Below, one piece after another: positions 1 to 47,342 of a stretch of DNA of 64,000 nt. Every line of letters begins with the position of its first letter. The first letter of the stretch is position 1. The notes under the pieces were generated by a model. It worked only from the letters and a program-made list of their open reading frames with translations. It was not told where the DNA came from and did not search any database. Position numbers and translations under genes: made by a program. Origin of the DNA: Candidatus Cloacimonadota bacterium (lineage in GTDB: Bacteria; Cloacimonadota; Cloacimonadia; Cloacimonadales; WRIO01). The stretch is from contig JAKPKU010000001.1 in NCBI GenBank assembly GCA_029553545.1, forward strand, positions 5,639-69,638, read 5' to 3'.

Positions 1-509
1 GTAGTAAAGCTATTACTGGCTGTTATGAACTGTTTGTATGCTATTGTTGTTTCTTGATGAGAGTTGATATTATCTGCGATTATCACTGCATCGTTATCAA
101 GTTTTGGTATTATTTGCTGTATGTAGTTGATGTAAGATTTTTTATTAGCATCGATAAAAACGAAATCATAGGTACAGTCTAAAGATGGTATAATATCTTC
201 AGCTTTTCCAAAATGTATTATGATGTTTTTCCTACTTTTTAGGTTTTCCGTTGCCATATTGAAGCGCTTTTCATCGACTTCTATAGTATCAATTAAGCAA
301 TTATCATTTTGACAAGCGACACTCATCATAAATGATGAAAAACCATTGGATGTACCTATCTCTAAAATATGTTTAGGTTTTTTTATCTGTACAAGAAAGA
401 AAAGTAGGTTTGCTGATTCAGGATCAATATTCCAAAGTCGTCTAATTTCACTCTTTTGTTTATCAAACTGAGCAAACTCATTAATATATTGCTGCTTTAA
501 TTTTTCCAT
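1..509 (-). CDS. class I SAM-dependent O-methyltransferase (family 3, YrrM/caffeoyl-CoA OMT-like); 3' end lies outside the window
   Basis: Not in the ORF track because it runs off the window. The minus-strand ATG at 509-507 opens MEKLKQQYINEF...HILEIGTSNGFSSFMM...YDFVFIDANKKSY. The LEIGTxxG SAM motif I and DFVFIDAxK are typical of O-methyltransferase family 3. It overlaps the stop of the upstream GT2 gene by 13 nt, consistent with an operon. Confidence 0.6.
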   Translation of the reverse strand, partial: MEKLKQQYINEFAQFDKQKSEIRRLWNIDPESANLLFFLVQIKKPKHILEIGTSNGFSSFMMSVACQNDNCLIDTIEVDEKRFNMATENLKSRKNIIIHFGKAEDIIPSLDCTYDFVFIDANKKSYINYIQQIIPKLDNDAVIIADNINSHQETTIAYKQFITASNSFT

Positions 510-6046: not shown

Positions 6047-6087
6047 ACCTTTCTATAGATAATCTATATATATTGTATTTCTGTTAC

Positions 6088-6115
6088 AATATAATTAATG
6101 CCATCCATTTGTCAA
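6088..6115 (-). promoter_or_regulatory. putative sigma70-type promoter of the potABC operon
   Basis: On the minus strand, TTGACA (6115-6110) is followed by a 16-nt spacer and TATATT (6093-6088). It lies about 70 nt upstream of the potA start. Confidence 0.4.
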
Positions 6116-6300
6116 AGACTTTTTTATTTATTATTACTATACTCAAAAAGTAGACGTAGAATGTTGGTCTGATGTAGTGATTAATAGCAATAGCTCAAAG
6201 TATCTGTCATTAAAGATGCCATGCAAAATGCCCATTTTAAAAGCATTTTGATCTTAAAAAATTGCTGGCTATAAACTCTTTAATTAGTGATTGTTCTTTT

Positions 6301-6658
6301 TATATCGAGAGGATCGAAAAGCGATCTCAAATCACATCTTTTTCTATCTTTCAAAAGTTCGTAATAAATCTCCTTTTTATTCCCTTTTGATTCCTATAGA
6401 AATACCTTTCATTCTCCAAGATAGCAAAGGGAATGTAAGAGGAGTCGTGTAGGTATATTATAGATAAATAGCCTTATACATTAATAAATGAAAAATGAGC
6501 AAAAAGCTGGAAAATCAGGACCAGATTACAGAGATATTTGTTCTTTTATGACACTGTTTTCTTTTCAATAAGATCATTTTTAAACAGAGATTTTTAGTAG
6601 ATTATTTTTATTTATCGTGCAATAACTTCATACAGTAAAAAAACAGCTAAAATAGCAT
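6301..6658 (-). repeat. conserved intergenic element, copy 1 (minus orientation, co-oriented with potABC)
   Basis: The 30-nt core CATTCCCTTTGCTATCTTGGAGAATGAAAG lies at 6435-6406 on the minus strand. Flanks align by eye to the copies at about 21900, 32625 and 46783. No reading frame is conserved across copies. Outer boundaries are approximate. Confidence 0.8.
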
Positions 6659-6860
6659 TAATTCACACATTTGGTGCATTTTTAACTTATTATATGGCGG
6701 AAATACAAACGAGCCATGCAATCATATAAATGTAGTAAAAGTATTAATATATAGGTCTTTAAGTAATAAATAAATTTATTATCAAAAATATAAGTTGACA
6801 AAAATTAAAAGATATTTAAATTATATAATGTAATAGTAAATATGTTTTAAAGGAGATTTT

Positions 6861-8081: not shown

Positions 8082-10205
8082 ATGTATTATTATAAAAAAA
8101 ACCTTATCATTTCATTATTAGCTTCCTTTGTAATAGCACTTTGTTATTTCTTTTTTTCTTTTTTTTATGGTAACAATCCGCGTTACCAATTTCAGATAGG
8201 GCAAATATCTCAACAAGACATTAGGGCACCATTTGATTTTCCTGTTGAAAAACGTGAAACAGAAATCCAAAAAGAAATATATGAAATCACAAAAAACCTT
8301 GAGCCTATTTATAAAATCTCTGAAAATGCTAAATTTCAAATGCTCAAAGAGCTTGATTATCTTTTTATTGAAATAAATAGCATTTTTGAAGACGGTAATA
8401 TTGACAACTTTGTAGAACAGTTAGAAAAAAGCAAATATCACTTTACTAATGAAACATTTCAATATCTAAAATCAAGTAATAATCGACAAAATATATATAA
8501 TATTCTTAGTCTACAATTGCAAATAATAAACGAAGTGCCTATTTATGATGCAAGCTTTGAACCCCTTGAATTTCGATTAAATGAAAATGGTCAGTTAAAA
8601 AATTCTTCCAAATACTCAGTTTATTCAATTACTCAAGCAAGACAAAGAATATTAAAAACAATTAGATCCACTACACAAAAGCAAGTTGTTTCAAATTTTC
8701 TTGATAACCTCTTAATTGCAAACATTGAAGAGGATATTGAAGCTACTGATAATGAAAAACAAGAAATACGTAAAAACTTGAATATTGTTATAGCTAATAT
8801 TTCAAAAGATGAAATTATTATCTCCAAGAATAGACAGATTACGGAAAATGATTTAACTGTTATAGAATCTTTAAATAAGGCATATCAGGAAAAGAAGAGC
8901 ACACAAAAAATTGGAGATTATCTCATTTCAGCAATTGGACTAGTTATTTTCAATATGATTGTTTTTACTCTGTACTTTGTTATTACTTCTATATTTTTCA
9001 AACAACGCTATAATGAGTTAAGACATACATGGCTTGTTACATTGATGCTGCTCATTAATTCAATTTTTACCATAATAATTAGCTTTTCATTTGATAATAA
9101 GTACTTAATGATACTGCCATTTTCTTTATTTATAGTCATATTATCTTATTTATTCATACCTGCTTATTCTTTTGTATTTAGTTTTTTTAATCTGTTATTG
9201 TTAGCACAGTATTCCAACTGGAACTACTATTTTGTATTAAATAGCATATTCCCAAGCCTTTTTGCAATCTATAGTATTAAAAAGTATAAACATATAAATC
9301 TATTTATCTTGTTCTTGTATATGGTGTTTGGTTATATTATTACTATATTATCTATTAGCCTTTTCAAGCTGGATCATTGGACCAGTGTCGTATATAATAT
9401 CATTTATGGAGCAATTTCCAGCTTTATATCTATTCTACTGGCTCACCTATTATTGCCTGTGATTGAAAAACAGTTTTCATTTGCAAGTAAACAAACTCTT
9501 CTTGAACTTCTTGATTTTGATCAGCCGCTATTAAAAAGATTGTCAAAAGAAGCGCCTGGAACATACTTTCATTCACTGACAGTAGGCAATCTCGCTGAAG
9601 CTTCAGCAGAAGCAATAAGCGCAAACCCATTAATTGCAAGGGTGGGGAGTTATTATCACGATATAGGTAAACTATATAATCCAGAAGTATTTGTTGAGAA
9701 TAATCAAAATTCCAATGAAATACACGATAAAATACCTGCAAAAGAAAGCGCAACAATGATAAAAAACCACGTGAATAATGGAATAAAGCTAGCAAGACAA
9801 TACAAGCTGCCAAAGTTTATTTCTGATATTATCGTGCAGCATCATGGAGATAATAAGATCAAGTTCTTTTATCATAAAGCTCAAAAAAACTTGGAACCTA
9901 TTAATGAGAATGATTATTATTATACAGGTCCAACTCCACAAACAAAAGAGTCTGCTTTAGTAATGATTGCTGATATTGTCGAATCAACTGCAAAATCGTT
10001 AACGGAATATAGTTCTGAATCTTTAAAAAAAGTGATAGATGATACTGTAATTAAACTTATTCAAGAAAAGCAATTGGATGACACTCCATTAACTCTGTCA
10101 GAAATCAAAACAGTTAAAGATACAATGTTGCCAATTATGGAAAGTATTTATAGAAAAAGAATTGAATACCCTGAAGAGGTGAAAACAAGTAGTGAGCAAC
10201 GTTGA
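8082..10205 (+). CDS. pgpH: 7TM-receptor/HD-domain membrane phosphohydrolase (PgpH/YqfF family)
   Basis: Extracellular N-terminal domain, seven TM helices, and a C-terminal HD domain (HSLTVGNLAE...YYHDIGK...QHHG). It sits in the conserved neighbourhood upstream of ybeY. Confidence 0.8.
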   Translation: MYYYKKNLIISLLASFVIALCYFFFSFFYGNNPRYQFQIGQISQQDIRAPFDFPVEKRETEIQKEIYEITKNLEPIYKISENAKFQMLKELDYLFIEINSIFEDGNIDNFVEQLEKSKYHFTNETFQYLKSSNNRQNIYNILSLQLQIINEVPIYDASFEPLEFRLNENGQLKNSSKYSVYSITQARQRILKTIRSTTQKQVVSNFLDNLLIANIEEDIEATDNEKQEIRKNLNIVIANISKDEIIISKNRQITENDLTVIESLNKAYQEKKSTQKIGDYLISAIGLVIFNMIVFTLYFVITSIFFKQRYNELRHTWLVTLMLLINSIFTIIISFSFDNKYLMILPFSLFIVILSYLFIPAYSFVFSFFNLLLLAQYSNWNYYFVLNSIFPSLFAIYSIKKYKHINLFILFLYMVFGYIITILSISLFKLDHWTSVVYNIIYGAISSFISILLAHLLLPVIEKQFSFASKQTLLELLDFDQPLLKRLSKEAPGTYFHSLTVGNLAEASAEAISANPLIARVGSYYHDIGKLYNPEVFVENNQNSNEIHDKIPAKESATMIKNHVNNGIKLARQYKLPKFISDIIVQHHGDNKIKFFYHKAQKNLEPINENDYYYTGPTPQTKESALVMIADIVESTAKSLTEYSSESLKKVIDDTVIKLIQEKQLDDTPLTLSEIKTVKDTMLPIMESIYRKRIEYPEEVKTSSEQR

Positions 10206-21899: not shown

Positions 21900-22235
21900 A
21901 TGCTATTTTACAAAATATCATTATACCTTTTTTAAAAAATTAGCCTGAAAATTGCTATATTTATTTACTAAAATAGACACGAAAATAAATCAAATAATCC
22001 CATTATCAGGTCAATTTTTCTCCATTTACATCTTTTATTTAATCATTGTTGTATATGACTATTTTTCAATTATATGTCTATATGATACCTCTTGCATTCC
22101 CCTTGCTATCTTGGAGAATGAAAGAGATTCTTATAGGAATTAAAAGGGAAGGGAAAGGAGATTTATTAATCATTTTTATGAGATAAATAGAAGGTGTTTT
22201 ATTGTCCATATTTTTAAGTAATGGTGATCGCTTAA
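21900..22235 (+). repeat. conserved intergenic element, copy 2 (upstream of the radical-SAM/SPASM-lon unit)
   Basis: Core at 22095-22124. Direct repeats TATATGACTAT (22052-22062) and TATATGTCTAT (22071-22081). The ORF-track ORF 21952..22143 runs through it, but its frame is not conserved in the other copies. Confidence 0.8.
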
Positions 22236-22405: not shown

Positions 22406-23422
22406 ATGTTTGAATATTTGCTAATGATTTTTAATTATATGTCGTTTAAGCGGGTTGTGAACCTAATTAAGGCATATTTATCATATTATATATCAATACT
22501 TATTGGCAGACCCTTTGTATGGGGCTATCCACCAATATTGATGATTGAGCCAACTAATATTTGTAATTTGAAATGCCCTCTCTGCCCTTCTGGTACAGGT
22601 CAGCTTAAGCGAGAGAAGGGGTATATGAATATTGCCACATTTGAGAGGGTGATAAATGAGATTTCGCCCTATACTTTCATGTTGATTATGTGGAATCAGG
22701 GGGAACCTTTTTTAAATAAAGACTTTATCCAGATGTGTAAGATTGCCAAGTCAAAGAAGATGCTTTTGCTTGTTTCTACAAATGCTAATGTTTTACCAAA
22801 TGCCAAAGAGATAGTTGAAGCGGGCATTGATAGATTGATAGTTTCTGCAGACGGAGCAAGCCAAGATACGTATAATATGTATCGAAGAAATGGAGTATTA
22901 CAGACAGTTGTAGATAATGTTGAGTCAATTATTAAAGCTAAAAAAGAGGCTAAAACCAGCTTGCCGAAGGTGATTTGGCAATTCATCGTCATGAAGCATA
23001 ATGAGCATGAAATAGAAGAAATTAAAGAAATTACACGTAAAATAGGCGTTGATAAACTTCAACTCAAAACTGTTCAGATATATGCTAAAGATGATATATA
23101 TACCTTCTTGCCAAATAACCCTAAGTACCGCCGTTACAAGATAACAGGTGATGATTTTGAACTTAAATATGGAATCAAAAATAGGTGTAGACGTATTTGG
23201 ACACAACCTGTTGTAAATTGGGATGGTGAAGTTGCTGTATGCTGCTTTGATAAAGATAATGACTTTAAGATCGGTAATATTCAACAGCAAAGCTTTAAAA
23301 ACTTATGGCATGGTAAAGAGTATAATAAATTTAGACGTCAGATTCTTAAAGATCGAGCTAAAATTGATATGTGTAAGAATTGTGGCGAAGGGGTATCATT
23401 AAAAATAAAGAACAAAGGGTGA
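22406..23422 (+). CDS. radical SAM protein with C-terminal SPASM/twitch-type Cys-rich domain and N-terminal TM helix
   Basis: CNLKCPLC (CxxxCxxC) follows an N-terminal hydrophobic helix. C-terminal cysteines CRRIW...VAVCCFD...CKNCGEG are typical of auxiliary 4Fe-4S SPASM domains. Confidence 0.75.
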   Translation: MFEYLLMIFNYMSFKRVVNLIKAYLSYYISILIGRPFVWGYPPILMIEPTNICNLKCPLCPSGTGQLKREKGYMNIATFERVINEISPYTFMLIMWNQGEPFLNKDFIQMCKIAKSKKMLLLVSTNANVLPNAKEIVEAGIDRLIVSADGASQDTYNMYRRNGVLQTVVDNVESIIKAKKEAKTSLPKVIWQFIVMKHNEHEIEEIKEITRKIGVDKLQLKTVQIYAKDDIYTFLPNNPKYRRYKITGDDFELKYGIKNRCRRIWTQPVVNWDGEVAVCCFDKDNDFKIGNIQQQSFKNLWHGKEYNKFRRQILKDRAKIDMCKNCGEGVSLKIKNKG

Positions 23423-23426
23423 TTAA

Positions 23427-25871
23427 ATGAAAAAATATGAAGATATAATAAAAGATATTGAAGATCAACAAAATGAAAGAAATGAAAAGTTAGAAAAGAG
23501 CTTACCTATCATTCCTCTTCGTGATCAATTGCTTTTGCCATTTGTCATTTTCCCTGTTGTAGCTGGTAGACAGGGGACTATTGATGCGATTAATATTTCA
23601 CTTGATAAGTTTGAAAGCAGAATATTTGCTGTACCACAGATCGAGGACAATGGTTCAGAGAATTATCCAACAGCAGGAGAATTGCATCGTGTGGGCACAA
23701 TTTGCATGATCAATCAAGTGTTTAAAATGCCAGATGGCTCATTGAGAGTGATATTGCAAGGCATCAAGAAAGCCAGAGCAAAAAAGTATATTAAACAGAA
23801 GAGCTATTATCAGGCAAATCTCCACTCATACCCTTATAAAGCAGAAATTGAAAGTATGGAATTTCAAGGCTTGATAAACGTTTTTATGGACACATTAGAC
23901 GAATACTTAGCCAAAGATAGAGGTATAACGATTGATTTGATTAAGAGTATCAAAGCATTTAAAAACCCTTATGAGATCTACCATTTTACGCTTGCTAATC
24001 TTGAAATACCATTGAAAGATAAGATAAAATACTTCGAAATTGATGATTTGGAAGAAGGCTTCAATGAACTTATTGGTTTCTTAGCAGAACAAATTGAAGT
24101 CATGAGAATCCAAAATGATTTAGAAATGAAAGTTAAAAGGCAGATTAGCAAATCACAAAAAGAGTATTTCCTCAATGAGCAGCTTCGTATAATTCATAAA
24201 GAGCTCGGCTATGATGATGATGAAAAAGATAATCTTGCAAGTATAAAGATGAGATTAAATGAACTTGATCTACCTAAAGAAGTTAGGAAGAAAGCAGATG
24301 ATGAGTTTAAAAAGCTTAGCAAGCTGTCACCAAGTATGCCTGAACATTTTGTTGTGTATAATTATCTTACCTGGATTTTAGATTTACCATGGGCAAAGCC
24401 AGTTTATAAGGACTTTGACATAAAAGAAGCTGCTGCAATACTGGATAGAGATCACTATGGATTGGAAAAAGTAAAAGATAGAATATTGGAATATCTGGCT
24501 GTATTGAAAATCAGTGATAAAATCAAAGGGCAGATCATTTGTCTTGTAGGACCTCCGGGAGTTGGTAAAACCTCTATCGGACGCTCTATCGCTGAGTCTC
24601 TGGATAGAGAGTTTATTCGTATATCGCTGGGTGGTGTTCGTGACGAATCTGAGATAAGAGGGCATCGAAGAACTTATATCGGCGCTATTCCTGGTGTCAT
24701 TATGCAAAGTATGAAAAAGGCAGGTACAACTAATCCGCTGATTATGCTTGATGAGATAGATAAAATGAGTATGGACTTCAAAGGTGACCCTGCCTCTGCT
24801 TTACTTGAAGTGCTCGATCCTGAACAAAACAAGAGCTTTAGAGACCACTTTTTAGATTTTGGTTATGACCTCTCAAATGTACTATTTATCACTACAGCAA
24901 ACTCTTTATCTTCAATTCCACGCCCACTTTATGACAGAATGGAGATTATCAGTATGCCAGGATATACTGAGATCGAAAAGCGTGAAATTGCAATGCGACA
25001 CTTGATTAAAAAGAAGCTTGATGAGTTTAATATCGAAGATAAAATTAAAATAAATATCAGTGAACAAATCATTACTCAAATCATTAATAAATATACCAGG
25101 GAATCTGGTGTACGCGAGTTGGAACGCAAAATAGGCACAATCCTAAGAAAGATAGTAAAGAAGTATGTGGGTAATGAAATTAAAAAATCTTATACAGTCA
25201 AATTAAAAGACCTAAAGGAATTCCTGGGCTATGAACCATATTTACTCTCAGATATACCACAAAAAGATACTTTAGGCGTAGCTGTAGGCTTGGCATGGAC
25301 ACCTGTTGGGGGAGATATTTTGCTGCTCGAGGCTCTCAAGTTACCTGGGAGTGGCAAGATTACCATTACAGGAAAGATAGGACAAGTCATGCAAGAGTCT
25401 GCTAAAGCGGCTTATAGCTATGCAGTTAGTCAATGTGAGAAATTTGGTATCTATAAGGATTATAAAAAAGTAGATTTGCACCTTCATATCCCTGAAGGAG
25501 CAGTGCCTAAAGATGGACCTTCAGCAGGAATAGGCTTGGCTTGTATTATTATATCTGTTTTGTCTGACAGACCTATTTATCATCATATTGCAATGACTGG
25601 CGAGATTACACTAACAGGCAGAGTGTTGGCAATAGGTGGCTTGCAAGAAAAACTTATGGCAGCAAAACAAGCTAAAATTAAAAAAGTTATTGTGCCTGCT
25701 GCAAACCGTCCAGAGCTTGAAGAGATTAAAGAAGAGATAAAAGAGGGTTTGGAGCTGATCTTTGTTGATAATGTCGATGAAGTAATTAACCTTTGTTTGC
25801 ACCCAAAAAAGAAAAGAACAAATGAAAATAAAACAAGTAAAAAAAGTAGTCAATCAAGATCAGACAAATAG
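23427..25871 (+). CDS. lon: ATP-dependent Lon protease (LonA)
   Basis: Lon N-domain, Walker A GPPGVGKTS and protease motif PKDGPSAG. It starts 4 nt after the stop of the radical SAM gene. Confidence 0.95.
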   Translation: MKKYEDIIKDIEDQQNERNEKLEKSLPIIPLRDQLLLPFVIFPVVAGRQGTIDAINISLDKFESRIFAVPQIEDNGSENYPTAGELHRVGTICMINQVFKMPDGSLRVILQGIKKARAKKYIKQKSYYQANLHSYPYKAEIESMEFQGLINVFMDTLDEYLAKDRGITIDLIKSIKAFKNPYEIYHFTLANLEIPLKDKIKYFEIDDLEEGFNELIGFLAEQIEVMRIQNDLEMKVKRQISKSQKEYFLNEQLRIIHKELGYDDDEKDNLASIKMRLNELDLPKEVRKKADDEFKKLSKLSPSMPEHFVVYNYLTWILDLPWAKPVYKDFDIKEAAAILDRDHYGLEKVKDRILEYLAVLKISDKIKGQIICLVGPPGVGKTSIGRSIAESLDREFIRISLGGVRDESEIRGHRRTYIGAIPGVIMQSMKKAGTTNPLIMLDEIDKMSMDFKGDPASALLEVLDPEQNKSFRDHFLDFGYDLSNVLFITTANSLSSIPRPLYDRMEIISMPGYTEIEKREIAMRHLIKKKLDEFNIEDKIKINISEQIITQIINKYTRESGVRELERKIGTILRKIVKKYVGNEIKKSYTVKLKDLKEFLGYEPYLLSDIPQKDTLGVAVGLAWTPVGGDILLLEALKLPGSGKITITGKIGQVMQESAKAAYSYAVSQCEKFGIYKDYKKVDLHLHIPEGAVPKDGPSAGIGLACIIISVLSDRPIYHHIAMTGEITLTGRVLAIGGLQEKLMAAKQAKIKKVIVPAANRPELEEIKEEIKEGLELIFVDNVDEVINLCLHPKKKRTNENKTSKKSSQSRSDK

Positions 25872-26064
25872 CTATTATATCCAAGTTCCGAGAAATGAGG
25901 TAATATTCATGGGATCAATACTCGAATCGCTTGAAGGTTGGTGCAACTATACCACCTGCGATAAAACTGAATCAGTATTGTTTGTCGATGTTGCAAAAGA
26001 TTATATAGAACAGTTTGAAAACCTTTTAACTAATATAGAACAATTCGATTTTATTAATGGCTGA
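25822..26064 (+). CDS. small conserved hypothetical protein (DUF4911-like, from memory)
   Basis: An 80-aa ORF overlapping the lon 3' end by 50 nt. YYIQVPRNEVIFMGSILESLEGW resembles the roughly 80-aa DUF4911 family. Confidence 0.4.
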   Translation: MKIKQVKKVVNQDQTNSYYIQVPRNEVIFMGSILESLEGWCNYTTCDKTESVLFVDVAKDYIEQFENLLTNIEQFDFING

Positions 26065-32572: not shown

Positions 32573-32624
32573 AGCATATCCTAATAGTTTTTTACTAAGC
32601 TTATACGAACCACTTTTAAGTCAA

Positions 32625-32866
32625 GAAAAAATTGCAGTATTCAAATAATACTTAACTAAAATAAAGTTGATTCCTGTTTTTTCTTTCTTTTTACTAATTT
32701 TTTAGATGAATATTGTATATGATTATTTAACAATAATATGTCTATGACATTCCCTTTACATTCCCCTTGCTATCTTGGAGAATGAAAGGTAGTTTTATAG
32801 GAATCTAAAGGGAATATAAAGAAGATCAATTGCTGATTTTTAAGAGTTGGGAAAGATCAGTCTTGT
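32625..32866 (+). repeat. conserved intergenic element, copy 3 (between the divergent radical SAM gene and trmB; co-oriented with trmB)
   Basis: Core at 32759-32788. Direct repeats TATATGATTAT (32716-32726) and AATATGTCTAT (32735-32745). The 5' arm is shorter than in the other copies. Confidence 0.8.
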
Positions 32867-33046
32867 AACCTATAGTTTTTTATTAATAATGATAGTTTAA
32901 TTAATCGTATGGAGATAATGCTACAGCCTTTTCTAATAAGTTTGTTATCATTCTTTAGACTAATATTCAAAAAAAAGATCGTTCTTTTTACTTTTTGTTT
33001 GACATATTTTGATTAATACAAGAAATGGGTTATAAAAGGAATTATT

Positions 33047-46524: not shown

Positions 46525-46782
46525 AACTTCCTCCACTTTCCATATTTATTACCAATTTAATAAACATTCAAAATAATGCAAGATCTTTTTTAAATAATAG
46601 CATAAATTTTTTTATTCTTTCAAATAGTGCATGTTCGACTCTTTTATAATGCAGGTGATTGATACCAAAAAACTAATCTATGATAGGAAAAAATACAGAA
46701 CCTTTTAAGAGAAAAGAAGAAAAATAGTGTTTTGCATGTAATGAACAGCGATTTTTTATAATATAAAACCATAATAATCATC

Positions 46783-47145
46783 GTGATATTTTACGATCAA
46801 TGAATGGAAAATTGAACCGTACACAAAACAATTTATAAAAAAGAGAGCTTGAAAATTACTTTTTTTCTACTTTTATATCATCTCAAAAACTTACAAAATT
46901 CCCTTTAATTAACCCAGATTTTCTCTCATTTCACTAATTTTCTATTAATAAGTGTATATGTCTATTTTTCAAATATATGTCTATATGAATCCCCTTACAT
47001 TCCCCTTGCTATCTTGGAGAATGAAAGGTAATTTAAAAGGAATCTAAAGGGAATGCAAAGGAGGTTTATTATGAATTTTATGAGAGAGAAAAACAATGTG
47101 TCTTATTATTGTTTTTTTAAGTCATAAAGATAAGTCGCAGGTGAG
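46783..47145 (+). repeat. conserved intergenic element, copy 4 (upstream of the isoprenoid ether-lipid operon)
   Basis: Core at 46998-47027. Perfect 11-bp direct repeat TATATGTCTAT at 46955-46965 and 46974-46984. GGGAATG (47049-47055) is perfectly complementary to CATTCCC. AAAGGAGG (47057-47064) is followed by an ATG at 47071 that only this copy has. Confidence 0.8.
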
Positions 47146-47342
47146 GTATTTGAAGTTTTTTGAACAAAGATAGACTGCCATCATTATTAATAGATATATT
47201 CGATTTGTTACTAATTATTAGTCTTTTATTTTTGATTTATCAAACTATTTTTGATAAGATACAGTTTTTTATTGACAATATAATCATATTTATTATTCTT
47301 AGATTTATAAAAGAATATTTAAACTATAGAATAGGAGTCAAC

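Follow-up and report, generated by a model that had tools for sequence, protein, structure and literature searches.

A dispersed palindromic intergenic repeat family with an invariant centre in Cloacimonadota

The uncultured Cloacimonadota abound in anaerobic digesters, where they live as syntrophs, and to our knowledge almost nothing is known of their gene regulation. In the window analysed here (the whole 64,000-nucleotide stretch; G+C about 33%), each of the four long inter-ORF gaps holds one copy of the same element and the remaining gaps are all shorter than 200 nt, which raises the question of what this element is, on which strand it might act and which neighbouring gene, if any, it serves. 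The initial annotation had described a near-invariant 30-nt core within each gap and had suggested either a leader RNA of the co-oriented downstream genes or the signature of a regulon. The core itself is retrieved by exact matching, with CATTCCCYTTGCTATCTTGGAGAATGAAAG occurring four times in the window with a single C/T difference, against 0.00 occurrences expected from shuffled sequence. Aligning the four regions confirms the sharp drop in conservation from core to flank that had been noticed; the flanks have a mean column identity of 65% and carry many substitutions and indels. Positions within the element are given below as idx, where idx 0 is the first T of the 18-mer TTGCTATCTTGGAGAATG.

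6406-6435, minus strand: invariant 30-nt core of copy 1, exact match, carrier of the single C>T
6363-6479, minus strand: phased 116-nt region of copy 1, with its hairpin at 6393-6453
22095-22124, plus strand: invariant 30-nt core of copy 2, exact match
22051-22167, plus strand: phased 116-nt region of copy 2, with its hairpin at 22077-22137
32759-32788, plus strand: invariant 30-nt core of copy 3, exact match
32715-32831, plus strand: phased 116-nt region of copy 3, with its hairpin at 32741-32801
46998-47027, plus strand: invariant 30-nt core of copy 4, exact match, on the strand first annotated; the proposed RNA would be the complement
46954-47070, plus strand: phased region of copy 4, about 116 nt of 11-nt units, including the five units GGAGAATGAAA / GGTAATTTAAA / AGGAATCTAAA / GGGAATGCAAA / GGAGGTTTATT
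46955-46965 and 46974-46984, plus strand: direct repeats TATATGTCTAT of copy 4
46980-47040, plus strand: imperfect hairpin or palindrome of copy 4, with arms at idx -26..-1 and 10..34 and loop TTGCTATCTT
46761-47221, plus strand: larger type A module of copy 4, approximate extent, its ends decayed here

Copies 1, 3 and 4 lie in the only three divergent intergenic regions of the window (6047-6860, 32573-33046 and 46537-47342), and copy 2 is the sole one between two co-directional genes. Genes of the window lie on the minus strand up to about 6.0-6.9 kb and mostly on the plus strand from there on, and no tRNA genes were found in the window.

A phased and dispersed non-coding element

Searching with TTGCTATCTTGGAGAATG recovers about 79 distinct copies among the matches listed, once chance matches and duplicates are dropped, all of them intergenic and all in Cloacimonadota MAGs or metagenomes; two of these loci (L047 and L071) are from the window's own genome. 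Many related genomes thus carry the element. Among species-representative genomes, one Candidatus Cloacimonadales MAG has eight sites and the other matches are chance occurrences inside unrelated coding DNA. At least 107 stretches match in metagenome contigs, the real ones being AT-rich and from digester and sludge samples. The 18-mer has no match in viral contigs, and BLASTN of the element against plasmid and phage collections gave none. Copy number reaches tens per genome, and each of four sequencing runs yielded an independent Logan contig that breaks off within the invariant core (L138 1-20, L139, L140 1-30 and L137), as expected where an assembler meets a repeat. A profile search of 955 kb of collected loci found no copy with an altered 18-mer; variant cores were later reached via a linked protein (TTCCTATCTTGGAGAACT, ...GGAGAATT, and two whose loop is shorter by one base), and all of these retain CTATCTTGGAGAA.

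The absence of a known RNA family, as had been supposed, holds at both stringencies used: Rfam 15 gave no match at gathering thresholds across the whole window, and at E<=10 the 751 nt around copy 4 gave only two sub-threshold matches to plant and viral miRNA precursors, reflecting the hairpin shape. Rfam on the related loci returned a tRNA only, and a literature search found no published account of such an element.

Across about 75 copies the register is free of indels from about idx -52 to +64, whereas indels are common outside. The right side consists of five 11-nt units (GGAGAATGAAA, GGTAATCTTAT, AGGAATCnAAA, GGGAATGnAAA and GGAGATTTATT) and the left side of complementary units (TGATTCCCTTT and ACATTCCCC), so that ATTCCC-type units on one side face GGGAAT-type units on the other, two or three of the ATTCCC-type units having their complements within the hairpin. 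The phased purine-rich units of the initial annotation are therefore present, although they number five rather than four and keep a strict register; the two 11-bp direct repeats and the core hairpin that it noted are likewise found, the former in copy 4 and the latter as a prediction on folding. The hairpin is imperfect and about 25 bp long (idx -26..-1 against 10..34, loop TTGCTATCTT), with two mismatches and one bulge conserved; its cap is the invariant centre, with the common heart CTATCTTGGAGAA, and two further GGA units lie beyond it.

This unit occurs in three architectures. Type A, represented by the four window copies and about 40 elsewhere, embeds the unit within a conserved module extending from about idx -245 to +215. 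Type B, found in the Candidatus Cloacimonadales MAG, has two to four perfect tandem TACCATCCCGT units plus GGGGAT units and nothing else conserved, and type C adjoins a gene for a 190-aa protein.

The element is non-coding, as first proposed: no frame is open throughout on either strand of the 75 copies, and no single frame is open in more than 10 of them. A small peptide or RiPP precursor starting after AAAGGAG-N7-ATG was rejected, since only about half of the copies have the ATG, the stops vary in position and the frame is not conserved. On the reverse-complement strand, an ORF of about 20-25 codons (M..KREKNRP.NRIIC...) spans about idx -56 to -135 (e.g., in L019, L023, L109 and L122); it was rejected as a gene, since no more than about 15 of 41 type A copies have it, and is probably a by-product of conserved nucleotides.

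Taken as a whole, the element is a Cloacimonadota-specific, previously undescribed family of dispersed palindromic intergenic repeats under unusually strong constraint, and the earlier claim of selection on a genuine non-coding family is upheld. Identity over 13-30 nt at dozens of sites per genome in many species ranks among the strongest non-coding constraints of the phylum and points to a specific partner molecule.

Neighbouring genes and orientation

The downstream genes to which a leader had been assigned (potA, radical SAM, trmB and GGPP synthase) do not bear out that assignment. The downstream gene is co-oriented with the element in 36 of 66 copies and, after dereplication of loci by flanking-protein clusters, in 24 of 40, neither value being different from chance, and in 27 copies or more the element faces a convergent gene whose 3' end is 90-220 nt away. 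Because three of the four window gaps are divergent, any orientation of the element in these three would appear co-oriented with a downstream gene. The TTGACA boxes noted downstream do exist; however, they are proximal sigma-70-type promoters of the flanking genes and lie outside the element. Both genes of each divergent pair in the window have their own such promoter, and the window type A copies therefore need not be in the 5' UTRs of these genes.

6115-6088 (minus strand) and 6795-6822 (plus strand): TTGACA promoter pair of the copy 1 gap, proximal to the flanking genes
46623-46594 (minus strand) and 47272-47299 (plus strand): TTGACA promoter pair of the copy 4 gap, proximal to the flanking genes

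Relatives also keep a supposed target operon without the element. The trio encoding a radical SAM/SPASM protein, a Lon protease and a DUF4911 protein (window 22406-26064) is retained in three relatives (L134, L135 and L136) at 64-77% protein identity, its upstream neighbour differing in each genome, and the element is absent upstream of it in all three, where the gaps measure 106 and 157 nt or, at 486 nt, contain no copy by profile search. In L134, a type B copy lies downstream of the DUF4911 gene, at 8196-8297. Nor does a regulon emerge from the neighbours, which have no common function: Pfam on 38 non-redundant neighbours gave 87 families, almost all matched once, and clustering of the neighbour proteins revealed no common theme.

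The census of orientations is, in contrast to the chance-level downstream side, biased on the other. In the orientation first annotated, 54 of 72 copies, and 33 of 43 dereplicated loci (p=6e-4), have their left-side gene on the opposite strand, the remaining 10 of 43 having the reverse arrangement; for type A alone the ratio is 20:9 (p=0.06). The sequence evidence favours the opposite strand and the opposite neighbour from those initially proposed.

The clearest case is the 190-aa family. At no fewer than 11 loci the element directly precedes a conserved 190-aa ORF of the opposite strand and lies between a conserved gene-strand promoter and the Shine-Dalgarno (SD) sequence and start codon. This promoter consists of an A-tract, TTGCYA or TTGACA, a 16-17-nt spacer and TATATT, scoring 9-11 of 12 (forms include TTGACA-17-TATATT, at 11/12, and TTGCAA-16-TATATT), and the SD of the gene follows 20-60 nt after the element. 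From this promoter-element-SD order, the element would be transcribed as its reverse complement within the 5' UTR of the 190-aa gene.

L066, L074, L016, L079, L116, L088, L123 and L129 (e.g., L123 4001-4606 and L129 1501-2133): loci of the 190-aa family, with the element always in the 5' leader

The 190-aa protein is confined to Cloacimonadota, where a MAG encodes several paralogs whose C-terminal tails vary. Neither Pfam nor PHROG gives a match, its medium-confidence AF2 model matches no PDB fold, and no DNA-binding domain or fold is recognisable in it. On one side of the core these loci remain homologous for about 125 nt, and on the other the homology breaks off within the coding region for the variable C-terminus. 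More distant paralogs do not have the canonical element arrangement and carry a different conserved upstream block instead. This block of about 90 nt (CCAAACC.GCTCTG.AAGCCTATTTGCAAAATGAATGAAATTTAGTTTT.ACAAACCCCC.TTTTGTCCTGCGTATTA..GTAGAGGGG) has no Rfam match, and tandem repeats of about 55 nt (GTAGTTAGTTGTAAAAAAGAAAGTTAGTTGTTGTTCGTATAAGTTCGAT) also occur upstream of a 190-aa paralog (L127 1170-1290; L128 12-130).

L127 ~1230-1320, L131 ~1290-1380 and L133 ~1210-1300: ~90-nt block upstream of distant 190-aa paralogs

Hairpin, strand and competing explanations

We compared the pairing of the two hairpin arms across 75 copies with slid and shuffled controls. Hairpin cells are paired in 78% of cases, a share that drops to 38-52% on sliding the partner by 1-3 columns, and double changes occupy 45 cells, against 27.9 +/- 4.2 in shuffles. 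Most of these double changes come from two pairs, AT>TA and TA>CG, by which sub-families differ, and pairs with double changes are no more numerous than in shuffles. RNAalifold on 41 type A copies retains the top seven pairs only, with a covariation term near zero (-0.24), and the counts of U.G and C.A mismatches are similar (118 vs 79). The palindrome is thus real and is probably being maintained, with modest support from covariation.

The two strands are not equivalent. The hairpin is more stable as the reverse complement in 51 copies, as against 23 with the reverse preference (Wilcoxon p=0.002), and in all four window copies. For copy 4, the reverse complement folds at -16.5 kcal/mol (z -3.2) and the written strand at -11.9 (z -1.8); over the window, z-scores range from -3.2 to -3.8 for the reverse complement (three copies) and from -1.8 to -2.9 for the written strand. 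The difference arises because a conserved C.A mismatch turns into G.U on the reverse complement. That strand has a perfect 8-bp top stem (CAUUCUCC/GGGGAAUG, with one G.U) beneath the loop AAGAUAGCAA. The 5' flank on this strand consists of CU-rich, anti-Shine-Dalgarno-like units (UCUCCUUU and AUUCCCUUU). Since the units are repeated, the G-rich arm has two possible pairing partners, and its pairing with the distal units is the predicted minimum-free-energy fold in three of the four window copies, although this alternative helix displays no covariation.

Based on the orientation bias, the promoter-element-SD order at the 190-aa loci and the strand asymmetry of the hairpin, we tentatively prefer a reading, to which we give somewhat less than an even chance, in which the element is a hairpin module transcribed on the strand opposite to that first annotated and read by a putative factor. 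The element would then act mainly as RNA, being included in the 5' leader or intergenic transcript of the left-side gene. The putative trans-acting factor would recognise the invariant loop and the top of the stem, and the G-rich arm would have the proximal and the distal CU-rich units as alternative partners, a two-state fold that could free or mask a ribosome-binding site or alter RNA stability. In the window copies, all of type A, the unit forms part of a conserved module of about 450 nt placed centrally in divergent promoter regions, and this module may represent either a transcription unit of its own or the decayed remnant of a mobile cassette. It is possible, if unlikely, that the invariant centre is the recognition site of an undescribed, Cloacimonadota-specific trans-acting factor, conceivably the 190-aa family itself, which has the element in its own leaders, and that the dozens of copies per genome form a lineage-wide post-transcriptional or nucleoprotein network of a hitherto undescribed kind.

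What speaks against an RNA is the strict 11-nt phasing over 116 nt, which extends well beyond the hairpin and which a DNA-protein array fits at least as well. A duplex-DNA site, which we consider unlikely, would comprise two head-to-head arrays of 11-bp iterons (consensus TnnAAAGGGAAT) around an invariant asymmetric centre, serving the assembly of a protein (a regulator, nucleoid protein, recombinase or transposase are candidates) in a layout like that of iteron arrays flanking a core promoter. The helical-repeat phasing holds across 116 bp in about 75 copies with no indel and continues outside the hairpin, in the direct repeats ATGnCTAT spaced 19-22 bp apart and in units 4-5; the centre is invariant yet not palindromic; the two to four perfect tandem TACCATCCCGT units of type B are as expected for iterons expanding by slippage; mismatch types have no clear G.U preference; and the copies lie in divergent promoter regions, including all three of the window. 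However, unit-specific deviations are mirrored on both arms and compensatory changes occur at two pairs, as base pairing predicts, and the strand asymmetry of hairpin stability is not expected of duplex DNA. No candidate protein was found, the linked 190-aa protein having no recognisable DNA-binding domain. Mobility would account for other features, and it is quite unlikely, in our estimate, that the element is a decayed MITE-like repeat whose type A module (about 350-450 bp) spread by transposition and is now mostly immobile, the centre being kept for reasons of its own or through exaptation. Inverted repeats of 10-14 bp bound some type A copies (GAGGGTGTTGCATA/TATGCAACACCCTC in L025, AAGAGGATATTGCA/TGCAATATCCTCTT in L112 and TGCTGTTTCA/TGAAACAGCA in L058); they also occur at L070 (with L025), are weaker in L073, L119 and L120, and cannot be recognised in any of the four window copies. 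L025 and L058 alone have possible 5-bp duplications (ATTAA and AATCT). Tens of copies per genome, assemblies that break at the core, relatives without the element at the corresponding place (where the upstream gene also differs) and homology between related loci that stops near the element's edge are all in keeping with transposition. Yet conservation peaks in the centre and falls to its minimum at the ends, opposite to the pattern of a MITE; types B and C have only the centre in common, without terminal repeats; the collected loci contain no clean filled/empty pair, the synteny between L134 and the window ending at that very point; no transposase is linked to any copy, the only recurrent neighbour being the 190-aa protein; there are no matches in viral, plasmid or phage collections; and neutral decay cannot account for an 18-30-mer that is invariant in about 79 copies.

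The least probable of these explanations, and an improbable one, is a small RNA of the plus strand, as the initial annotation had offered in the alternative. Here an internal promoter (TT(T/G)ACA-17-GAGAAT) would drive an RNA of about 100 nt that contains three or four GGA or SD-like motifs, ends at an AT-rich hairpin plus T run and could sponge a CsrA-like protein; at the 190-aa loci it would be antisense to the 5' UTR of the gene. At a single fixed position, the only one with a sharp peak, 34 of 67 copies reach 9/12 or more for this promoter, which promoter scoring also flags in the window and in L129; about 12 copies have a T>G change that yields a perfect TTGACA at the cost of one hairpin pair, and some have a hairpin and T run at +95..+135. 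Against this, one promoter-like match per 116-nt AT-rich element is expected by chance (the background being about 7 per 800 nt), GAGAAT has neither the first T nor a TG extension, and the promoter is lost in variants (GAGAAC in L123; no -35 in L127 and L131). Moreover, the invariant heart would fall in the promoter spacer, the terminators are positionally inconsistent (about 10 of 67) and the orientation bias concerns the other side.

Several narrower candidates were also discarded. A long-range helix closing a large RNA is contradicted by complementarity in a minority of copies only, which terminal repeats explain equally well; inspection of the core yielded no convincing match to a sigma-54, ECF or Bacteroidetes-type promoter; and an intrinsic terminator at a fixed distance is not supported, its position being inconsistent and the clear terminators belonging to loci with a convergent gene.

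Relation to known repeats and RNAs

The ERIC/IRU, REP/BIME, BOX and Correia elements are dispersed intergenic palindromic repeats of Enterobacteria, pneumococcus and Neisseria. Like them, the present element has tens of copies per genome, is strictly intergenic, forms imperfect palindromes that could fold once transcribed, and is modular with a variable number of sub-units; with ERIC in particular it shares a conserved central core. A mobile origin is possible in both cases, and the effects would be expected to depend on orientation relative to the neighbours. Unlike these repeats, to which it has no sequence similarity, the Cloacimonadota element is built of strictly phased 11-nt units, has a 13-30-nt centre that is invariant across many species, is restricted to this phylum, and has no RAYT or transposase partner that we could find. 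The parC-type centromere or operator, in which two sets of 11-bp iterons bound by ParR flank a core promoter, resembles it in having 11-bp iterons on both sides of a core with -35 and -10-like hexamers; however, the parC arrays are direct, whereas those in Cloacimonadota are inverted and occur in dozens of chromosomal copies with no par genes nearby.

Among RNAs, Qrr, LhrC and CsrB/RsmZ are families of paralogous small RNAs or GGA-rich sponge RNAs. The resemblance lies in several paralogous copies with an invariant stretch and in repeated GGA or UCCC-type motifs complementary to ribosome-binding sites, but the Cloacimonadota element has no promoter-terminator unit common to all copies, its invariant part would be a promoter or loop instead of a seed, its copy number is higher, and it has no Rfam match. 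Translational control hairpins and leader RNAs of 5' UTRs are similar in their position between promoter and Shine-Dalgarno, as in the 190-aa family, and in having anti-SD-like repeats and two alternative predicted folds. In contrast to these, the Cloacimonadota element also lies far from any start codon, sometimes between convergent genes, and adjoins genes of unrelated function.

Whatever its mode of action, the element can serve as a lineage marker and as a defined bait for pulling down its putative factor, and it explains assembly breaks in metagenomes. If it is only a decayed mobile repeat, it should still be masked in searches for regulatory RNAs in the intergenic regions of Cloacimonadota.

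An invertible promoter was also considered and rejected for the collected loci, as 81 comparisons of homologous flanks all have the same arrangement, the exceptions being due to another repeat (GTACCTAACCCGCAGCGAAGCGAGGACC and GGGCGAGCTTTGCTCGTCAG). This other dispersed repeat of the same genomes, recognisable by these two motifs, occurs in the flanks of L016, L066, L086, L093 and L122. In L107 and L122 the element is closely followed, about 160-240 nt to the right of the core, by a tRNA-like sequence (GCATCTATAGCTCAGTTGGTAGAGCAACTGACTCTTAATCAGTGGGTCGTA).
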